Source: Escherichia phage Pu-Krd-SF6. Taken from it: a DNA stretch of 64,000 nucleotides. The DNA is taken from the sequence record PQ759886; one strand, 5' to 3'. This document shows, in pieces, positions 38,810 to 39,207 of this stretch. The notes under the pieces are model-generated. The model was given only the letters and a program-made list of their open reading frames with translations, was not told the origin of the DNA and ran no database searches. The stretch's first letter is position 1, and every line of letters begins with the position of its first letter. The position numbers and the translations under genes are program-made.

Positions 38810-39207
38810 TTTATTGGAGATTCACTGCCTTAGTGTGAGCTAAAATCGAGGAGCCGTCGAACTGTCTGATTAATGATTTGCGAATCATTATAGTTTTAAG
38901 ACCCCGGCAGTTTTACGGTGTACCTCTTGAATGTTATTCTTATAGCGGCAAGTGCATGCTACCCCGAGGTGATGGCTAATCGGGAGTACGCCTCAAGGCC
39001 TATATATCCATCAGTATATATCTTATCCTCGAGAAATCGAACCCGGAACCTTTAAGCTAACGGTGTGCAACAGATAAGAGCTATAAGGTATGATGACGGG
39101 TTTATGGTTATCCTGGTCGTTAAATATCCAAAAACCTATGTTCCCCTTGAGGGCTTGCGCAGGCAATGCCAATAAGTCCTGCATTTTCATTTAAAAGAGA
39201 ATTTATA

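Follow-up and report, generated by a model that had tools for sequence, protein, structure and literature searches.

A conserved RNA domain with a covarying kissing loop in the spacer between rIII and 30.9 of T4-like phages

What is carried by the 398-bp spacer that separates rIII from 30.9 in Escherichia phage Pu-Krd-SF6? We analysed a 64,000-nt window of this Tequatrovirus (a T4-like phage; record PQ759886), for which an earlier note, made by reading the letters, had proposed that the gap holds a structured RNA or a cryptic element. The gap had been delimited correctly (38810-39207, between the rIII stop at 38809 and the 30.9 ATG at 39208), and the idea of a structured RNA turned out to be strongly supported, with about 45 base pairs and a kissing loop covarying across phage genera. 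The structured part is the central 149 nt, hereafter the core; the remainder is a mosaic of smaller conserved hairpin modules. The comparisons show the core to be a conserved, strand-specific RNA domain with tertiary structure, independent of its neighbours. The best overall explanation, which we consider probable, is a self-contained, independently folding RNA domain belonging to a previously uncatalogued family. The novelty is at the level of the RNA family, since no known family fits; structured phage RNAs as a category are already known.

How is the core built? In our model a closing stem leads into three arms, two of which are joined through their loops. Its parts, all on the plus (+) strand, are the following.

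38939-39087, +: core structured domain, 149 nt including the closing stem P1; absent from T4
38939-38946 (CTTATAGC) with 39080-39087 (GCTATAAG), +: P1, the 8-bp closing stem
38947-39000, +: arm A overall, a long bent hairpin
38947-38949 (GGC) with 38998-39000 (GCC), +: P2 of arm A, 3 bp
38950-38957 (AAGTGCAT) opposite 38992-38997 (CTCAAG), +: internal loop of arm A, 8/6 nt, conserved
38958-38967 with 38980-38991, +: Pa of arm A, 10 bp, with bulged A38985 and C38989
38968-38979 (GGTGATGGCTAA), +: apical loop of Pa
39001-39020, +: Pb, which is arm B; TATATA, loop TCCATCAG, TATATA; 39001-39006 with 39015-39020, 6 bp
38970-38975 (UGAUGG, apical loop of Pa) with 39008-39013 (CCAUCA, loop of Pb), +: kissing loop between arms A and B
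39021-39079, +: arm C overall, a three-way junction
39021-39027 (TCTTATC) with 39073-39079 (GATAAGA), +: Pe of arm C, enclosing Pc and Pf
39029-39040 (TCGA-GAAA-TCGA), +: Pc of arm C, 39029-39032 with 39037-39040, capped by a GAAA tetraloop
39041-39045 (ACCCG) with 39061-39066 (CGG-T-GT), +: Pf of arm C, a short helix
39046-39060 (GAACCTTTAAGCTAA), +: 15-nt loop capping Pf, nearly invariant
39067-39072 (GCAACA), +: joiner of arm C

The four-way junction is wholly paired, P1, P2, Pb and Pe adjoining one another without linker bases. Conservation is highest in unpaired bases (AAGKGCAU, a GGCCUAU stretch, ACCCGGAMCC and GCUAACGGUGUGCAAC), and GCTAACGGTGTGCAAC in arm C is almost invariant among the homologues. 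The inverted repeat seen by the earlier note is real and corresponds to P1; GCTATAAG lies at 39080-39087 as claimed, but the left arm, CTTATAGC, is at 38939-38946 and not at 38934-38941. The CCCCGAGG and CCTCAAGG blocks, which had also been taken for inverted repeats, are not partners. The pair that covaries is CCCGA (38963-38967) with TCGGG (38980-38984); the CCCCGAGG/CCTCAAGG pairing is possible on the minus strand alone, needs G·U pairs there and has one mismatch in Kosakonia.

The fold was derived from 29 distinct homologous sequences. From their plain MAFFT alignment RNAalifold predicted 35 pairs, P1 among them, and 22 of these show compensatory changes. Our structure model has 46 pairs, one register having been mended after inspection of the divergent members. 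In the MAFFT alignment 93.2% of its pair cells are paired, compared with 30-42% when the partners are slid by 1-3 columns; double changes occur in 32 pairs, and none of 500 shuffles matched any of the observed measures. A covariance model (R1) built for the core has 162 positions and 45 pairs, and in the model-fitted alignment 95.4% of pair cells are paired, with compensatory change in 34 of the 45 pairs. The four inner pairs of P1 covary strongly (for example, AU:18 UA:8 GC:2 and AU:16 GC:11), and its ends differ in other genera yet stay complementary (TAAAC/GTTTA, CATATTAC/GTAGTATG, AATTGTAG/CTACGATT). P2, which is GGC/GCC in the window, is GGU/ACC in Yersinia phage fHe-Yen9-01, and Pa is found as CCCGA/TCGGG, CCCAA/TTGGG, CTCTA/TAGAG, CCGAT/ATCGG and CGGAT/ATCCG; 10 of the 13 pairs of the arm A helix show compensatory change. 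The cells of Pb are 100% paired, four of its six pairs having changed in a compensatory manner (TATACA/TGTATA, TATGCA/TGCATA, TATTCA/TGAATA, TATGTA/TACATA). Within arm C the same applies to five of the seven pairs of Pe, all three of Pc and three of the five of Pf, the latter going from CCCGG/ACGG to CCCAG/ATGG and CCTGG/ACAG.

The contact between the loops of Pa and Pb is, judging from the alignment, a covarying kissing loop. Complementarity of 6-7 bp is present in each of the 11 distinct loop types, the sequence varying by lineage, and the mean for non-cognate combinations is 4.4 bp. The window has UGAUGG/CCAUCA, Klebsiella phages have CGAUGG/CCAUCG and Serratia phages CUAUGG/CCAUAG; Cronus, EcS1 and Yen9 have CAAUGA/UCAUUG, KPN-12i has UGCAUUU/GAAUGCA and JC221 UUGUAUU/AAUACAA. 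Several other candidates within the core were rejected. The RNAalifold register of lower Pa breaks in COW86c and Cronus, the GCTAC/GTA-C-GC register being the one kept through double changes; a 3-bp apical mini-stem (GGY/GCY) was dropped, since Y38970 covaries with R39013 and what looked like its third pair is better read as the one that opens the kissing loop; a GAGGYG/CGCCTC pseudoknot is lost in COW86c, EcS1 and JC221; and a GGAG site of the RegB type in Pa is not conserved by the divergent members.

On which strand does the RNA lie? G·U combinations fill 64 pair cells of the alignment and A·C combinations 9, and the GAAA (GNRA) tetraloop reads correctly on the plus strand only; therefore, the RNA reads in the direction of the genes on either side. 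Both features to which the earlier note had drawn attention, a T-loop-like motif and an antisense open reading frame (ORF), are on the minus strand, whereas the RNA is on the plus strand.

Could the spacer instead be a decayed protein gene, a transfer RNA (tRNA) pseudogene or a G+C-rich spacer with chance inverted repeats? The T-loop-like GGTTCGA is indeed present on the minus strand (39037-39043; TCGAACC on the plus strand), there are short ORFs on both strands, and several GenBank records annotate hypothetical coding sequences (CDSs) over the core, even a 'glycogen branching enzyme'. As the earlier note held, the motif does not belong to a cloverleaf: ARAGORN detected 0 tRNA or transfer-messenger RNA (tmRNA) genes in the whole window, no tRNA or tmRNA model of Rfam matched, and the plus-strand complement of the motif forms parts of helices Pc and Pf. 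A tRNA-like reading of the minus strand is ruled out by ARAGORN together with the G·U to A·C ratio. The core does share with the tRNA cloverleaf a closing stem, three arms at a four-way junction and a tertiary loop-loop contact, but it is 149 nt long, its junction has no linkers, its arms are unlike the D, anticodon and T arms, and the two kissing arms are adjacent in sequence.

The coding evidence is similar. Each reading frame of the core is interrupted in at least one homologue, and the lengths of the indels are not divisible by three; the five ORFs of the gap gave no Pfam match. It had been noted that no plus-strand ORF of at least 60 aa lies wholly inside the gap, and this holds, the longest having 45 aa (38918-39055); a 72-aa ORF at 39166-39384 is just 30.9 with an upstream extension. 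The antisense ORF exists, with 55 aa at 39023-39190 instead of 58 codons at about 39013-39189. As for the annotations, many deposited genomes (e.g. ON528740, PV390659, MZ170040) carry two to three short hypothetical CDSs across the core, and in several records a CDS in the spacer region is labelled '1,4-alpha-glucan branching enzyme'; they look like gene-caller artefacts. Finally, the core is 65-90% identical across the genera compared, which together with the compensatory substitutions is incompatible with neutral decay. The refuting condition that the earlier note had set for the RNA reading does not hold: no remnant of a protein gene is detectable, and a conserved secondary structure is present. 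We give decay a negligible probability.

Does the core belong to a known RNA family? Rfam 15 contains 4227 covariance models, among them all curated models of riboswitches and ribozymes and those of tRNA, tmRNA, RNase P, 6S, Y RNA-like and phage motifs. With permissive filters its cmscan search of 38300-39700 returned no match inside the gap, and the core alone (38925-39095) gave zero matches at E<=10; the divergent JC221 homologue gave just a chance microRNA match (E 5.9). The small phage RNAs that come closest in kind are rnaC and rnaD of T4 (species 1 and 2 RNAs), which are likewise small (119-139 nt), of obscure function and derived from a longer transcript, having no promoter to themselves. 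They differ in lying in the tRNA cluster and in the tRNA-like 3' end of rnaC; moreover, T4 has both yet is without the core RNA. When R1 was run with filters off on the T4 tRNA-rnaC-rnaD region, the best score was 7.3 bits (E 0.24), off both rnaC and rnaD, so by this model the core has no homology to either. A literature search that included verbatim strings found no description of the core; an earlier mention in Truncaite et al. 2006 (Virology 344:378) is possible.

Where is the core found? In the 64-kb window R1 has a sole match, 38932-39093 (181.8 bits, E 1.5e-42). BLAST with the whole gap retrieved 993 phage records, at least 80% of the gap being covered in 179; with the core it retrieved 411 phage records and 412 places, and the core is single-copy per genome. 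The region 38400-39600 is 100% identical in Escherichia phages Pu-Krd-SF1, SF2, SF5 and SF7. Copies 91-96% identical to the core occur in phages of Klebsiella (Jiaodavirus), Enterobacter, Kosakonia, Edwardsiella (Kanagawavirus), Citrobacter and Salmonella (Moonvirus), and the core BLAST also found copies of about 85% identity in Serratia and Erwinia phages; divergent copies are present in Erwinia phage Cronus, EcS1 (Kagamiyamavirus), fHe-Yen9-01 (Tegunavirus) and Pseudotevenvirus. In five of the eight genera compared, none of the flanking genes measured (gp31, rIII, 30.9) is more conserved than the core. A strict motif scan of 185,579 bacterial and archaeal species genomes found the core in none, and BLAST against 5,426 complete E. 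coli genomes and 72,556 plasmids did not find it either. Matches in metagenomes are mostly long T4-like contigs with a few short fragments, and a loose pattern of the 5' domain scanned against viral contigs gave about 117 chance loci and one true match.

Within T4-like phages the distribution is uneven. About 23% of Escherichia records carry the core, compared with essentially all Klebsiella and Enterobacter records, and this patchy presence among coliphages marks the core as an accessory function. The rIII-30.9 gap of T4 is 244 bp; what it is without, about 155 nt (window ~38935-39089), is the structured core, and R1 found no core in the T4 rIII region. The insertion point in Tequatrovirus is empty in T4, BP32 and STML-198, and in the Escherichia phage HX01, a Mosigvirus, an unrelated segment of about 45 nt occupies the site between CTCTTGAATGT and GGTATGATGACG (L177 ~520-570); the site behaves as a cassette hot spot. 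In Shigella phage CT01 a deletion runs from just past rIII to the middle of the core (L175 479-700), leaving arm C and the 3' strand of P1. CT01 is thus a natural truncation mutant and shows that the core has been lost secondarily at least once.

Such a pattern raises the question of whether the core is a mobile or recombination cassette at the DNA level, akin to miniature inverted-repeat elements, its stems being terminal inverted repeats. The boundaries between presence and absence adjoin the 8-bp inverted repeat, as the empty sites and the HX01 insert illustrate, the core occupies two different genomic loci, and the spacer modules are shuffled between genera. However, elements of this type have multiple copies, conserved termini and target duplications, whereas the core is single-copy in every genome, is flanked by no direct repeats or target-site duplication and comes with no transposase. 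Its terminal repeats vary yet remain complementary, the internal helices and the kissing loop covary, and the excess of G·U over A·C points to selection on a single-stranded molecule of plus sense. Recombinational movement is compatible with an RNA explanation and does not replace it. We regard a cassette of this kind as very improbable; together, a purely DNA-level cassette and a decayed gene are effectively excluded. PeSL elements, which Arbiol and colleagues reportedly described in 2010 as mobile regulatory cassettes in intergenic regions of T4-type phages, resemble the core and modules D1 and D2 (described below) in being short and conserved, in lying between genes and in varying among T4-type genomes both in presence and in order. 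They differ in being multicopy early promoters with stem-loops, the core being single-copy, promoterless and far more elaborate.

What, then, do the neighbours tell about the RNA? Wherever it was examined in Tevenvirinae (at least 10 genera), the core sits in the rIII-30.9 spacer and is oriented like both genes. In Pseudotevenvirus (Yersinia phage JC221, Klebsiella phage KPN-12i) it follows uvsY and two small ORFs and faces convergent uvsW, with no same-strand gene downstream; the equivalent uvsW/uvsY.-2 gap of T4 has only 55 nt. In Pseudotevenvirus and in several other genera just 0-35 nt separate the core from the stop codon of the preceding gene. A scan revealed no sigma-70 promoter or terminator adjoining the core, the first terminator lying after 30.9; therefore, we infer that the core would be transcribed within the rIII-30.9 message. 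Late (TATAAATA) or MotA-box promoters of its own were picked out by eye as candidates and rejected, as they lack conservation across genera. Downstream of the Pseudotevenvirus core come another 180-380 nt of non-coding sequence with several hairpins, ending in a bidirectional terminator shared with uvsW.1 (JC221, L021 1549-1940; L035 2146-2330); this stretch may be a longer non-coding 3' region.

A riboswitch-like cis regulator would fit part of this picture: an aptamer for a metabolite, ion or protein would control translation of 30.9, read-through or message stability. As is typical of aptamers, the closing stem of the core varies, bases of its junction and loops are conserved, and a kissing loop lies distally; the Tevenvirinae core invariably precedes 30.9 on the strand of that gene; and a hairpin with a U-rich tail and a pairing between the Shine-Dalgarno sequence and its complement precede 30.9. 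The purine, lysine and cobalamin riboswitch aptamers likewise combine a variable P1, conserved bases in junctions and internal loops, and a covarying loop-loop contact that pins the arms. Thus, covarying helices and conserved unpaired bases give the core the conserved structured aptamer expected of riboswitches in general, but a consistent 5'-leader position with an overlapping expression platform was not found. The distance from the core to the 30.9 start ranges over 68-180 nt, the intervening modules differ in order and no conserved platform overlaps P1. The junction, in contrast to those of the known aptamers, has no unpaired pocket bases. The 30.9 leader of T4 (modules D1-D3) is intact without the core, the Pseudotevenvirus core is followed by the bidirectional terminator and convergent uvsW and by no same-strand gene, and no known family in Rfam 15 matches. 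All things considered, a cis regulator seems rather unlikely to us.

Another possibility is a new class of self-cleaving ribozyme, or a processing signal that would separate the rIII and 30.9 messages or define a 3' end. The natural hairpin ribozyme uses a paired four-way junction to juxtapose two adjacent arms, which dock, and the core has a comparably compact fold, its arms being joined by a paired four-way junction and a loop-loop contact. Nearly invariant unpaired bases, the intercistronic position just past the upstream stop and the general abundance of small ribozymes in phage genomes point in the same direction. Unlike the hairpin ribozyme, though, the core would dock by Watson-Crick kissing loops and not by two internal loops, and the loop A/B consensus is absent. 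None of the Rfam ribozyme models matched at E<=10, which excludes the known classes, and new classes are rare, so that the prior is low; no candidate cleavage site can be named, and cleavage would be conjectural. We therefore think a ribozyme or processing signal improbable, more so than a riboswitch.

How would an independently folding domain act? Its most conserved unpaired bases and its two unrelated gene neighbourhoods argue for a discrete module that would work through its three-dimensional surface and not as a regulator tied to one neighbour. A discrete module is favoured because the core occurs in two gene contexts, because it follows the upstream stop and keeps its variable distance from 30.9, and because T4 has the leader without the core. 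That the order of the core relative to the other spacer modules changes between genera also speaks for autonomy. The mode of action we favour is that of a stable RNA, retained or excised, which would bind either a small ligand or one particular protein of the host or the phage, and we put its chance somewhat short of even. Such an RNA could serve as a decoy or sponge, or as the RNA part of a ribonucleoprotein.

Several points weigh against an autonomous RNA of this kind. The discrete species of about 150 nt is putative, and its binding partner is conjecture, as the sequence points to none. T4 and about three quarters of Escherichia T4-like phages are without the core, so any function it has is dispensable in the laboratory. 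The constant place upstream of 30.9 on the same strand in Tevenvirinae would fit a cis regulator too. The lineages represented among the 29 sequences are limited in number, and many covariation cells are inherited together. Finally, single-sequence folds are no better than those of shuffled sequences on either strand (z = -1.0, -0.5). The evidence for the structure is comparative and not thermodynamic, and thermodynamics alone would therefore have missed the core.

One may go further and ask whether the core is the founding member of a new functional class, be it a ribozyme or aptamer, a counter-defence decoy or a self-assembling RNA. We consider this possible but unlikely. A counter-defence decoy would be a viral RNA whose structure captures a host nuclease or an immune sensor; the enterovirus RNA that inhibits RNase L also uses a kissing loop. 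For the self-assembling variant, in which the loops of Pa and Pb would kiss between molecules and lead to oligomerisation, we can offer pure speculation. ROOL and GOLLD are highly structured phage RNAs of obscure function in which kissing loops are central to the architecture (PMC12286853). They differ from the core in being several-fold larger, in occurring in other hosts and phages and in forming multimeric cages, and they have no sequence or model similarity to it.

What surrounds the core? The flanking genes and the smaller modules of the spacer are listed below.

38078-38413, +: gp31, gene upstream of rIII
38561-38809, +: rIII, 41.4% G+C
38810-38938, +: module U, upstream spacer, identical in T4
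38846-38860: hairpin 1 of module U, TCGA-GGAGCCG-TCGA, with GGAG (a RegB-type motif) in the loop
38871-38890: hairpin 2 of module U, TAATGATT-TGCG-AATCATTA, 8 bp, followed by TAGTTTT
39095-39127, +: module D1, hairpin GACGGG...CCTGGTC with loop TTTATGGTTAT, followed by CGTTAAATAT; also at L004 ~2420-2460 and L039 ~1377-1410
39140-39157, +: module D2, small hairpin motif GTTCCCCTTGAGGGCTTG; also at L039 1198-1215 and L035 ~2205-2220
39159-39182, +: module D3, hairpin GCAGG...CCTGC, followed by U-rich AUUUUCAUUU
39184-39201, +: initiation region of 30.9, in which UUUUC can pair with the GAGAA Shine-Dalgarno sequence; D2, D3 and the initiation region together span 39140-39207
39208-39384, +: 30.9, from its ATG to its end, 44.6% G+C
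39388-39409, 3' of 30.9: intrinsic terminator, with 30.8 next

Base composition had been one of the clues to the spacer, two segments having been counted at about 50% G+C. Their values are lower, 46.4% (38881-38990) and 43.8% (39101-39180), and 53% is reached in just one 100-nt interval (38900-38999). The gap as a whole has 42.0% and the window 35.8%. Set against the values of rIII and 30.9 given above, the composition signal of the gap relative to its neighbouring genes is therefore weak, and the enrichment is marginal and was overstated.

The stem of 38871-38890 stays paired through changes in Mosigvirus HX01 (TATCGATT/AATCGGTA), and this hairpin, which resembles an AU-rich terminator, may be a weak terminator of rIII. 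D1 hardly varies in Tequatrovirus, Mosigvirus and Gelderlandvirus. From genus to genus its outer pairs flip (GAC/GTC, GTC/GAC, GTG/CAC), and it precedes the core in phages of Klebsiella, Serratia and Edwardsiella (PEi20) and follows it in the others. Its UUAUCC, which resembles the 5' arm of Pe, was rejected as an alternative partner, being inconsistent across genera, and D1 persists in T4, which has no core. D2 occurs once in the window and once per related locus, T4 included; it is upstream of the core in EcS1 and COW86c, a D2-like GTACCCCTTGTGGGGC follows the core in Pseudotevenvirus, and D2 may travel with the core. The D3 stem changes from GCAGG/CCTGC to GAGAG/CTCTC in Kosakonia phage 305. 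Together with the pairing that involves the Shine-Dalgarno sequence, D3 suggests a putative attenuator or translational control of 30.9, independent of the core. Past the end of 30.9 the strong intrinsic terminator reads GAGGACTCCTTCGGGAGTCCTTTTTT, and an Rfam match there to the Rhizobiales small RNA Atu_C8 (39340-39423; 31.4 bits, E 5e-4, where the gathering score is 50) is merely this terminator. A resemblance of 38833-38860 (ATTCACTGCCTTAGTGTGAGCTAAAATC) to the type I-F repeat of clustered regularly interspaced short palindromic repeats (GTTCACTGCCGTATAGGCAGCTAAGAAA) was also rejected: it amounts to 18/28 positions, including TTCACTGCC and AGCTAA at the right spacing, and the hairpin is not kept. 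By a binomial estimate about four matches at this level are expected per window by chance, and the likeness is probably a coincidence.

What does the core mean for the biology of these phages? T4-like phages have been studied intensively, yet in about 400 genomes the core is unannotated or mis-annotated as hypothetical proteins. Its carriers include candidate therapeutic phages of Klebsiella, Enterobacter, Shigella, Yersinia and E. coli. Elsewhere, RNAs in which near-invariant unpaired bases accompany a junction fold and a covarying kissing loop have repeatedly proved to be ribozymes, riboswitches or RNAs that bind specific proteins. Natural relatives exist with and without the core (T4 without it, the phage of the window with it, CT01 with a truncated copy), and its role in infection, host range and defence evasion is therefore testable. 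If any of the readings as a new functional class is true, the T4 phage family would gain a new activity at the level of RNA.

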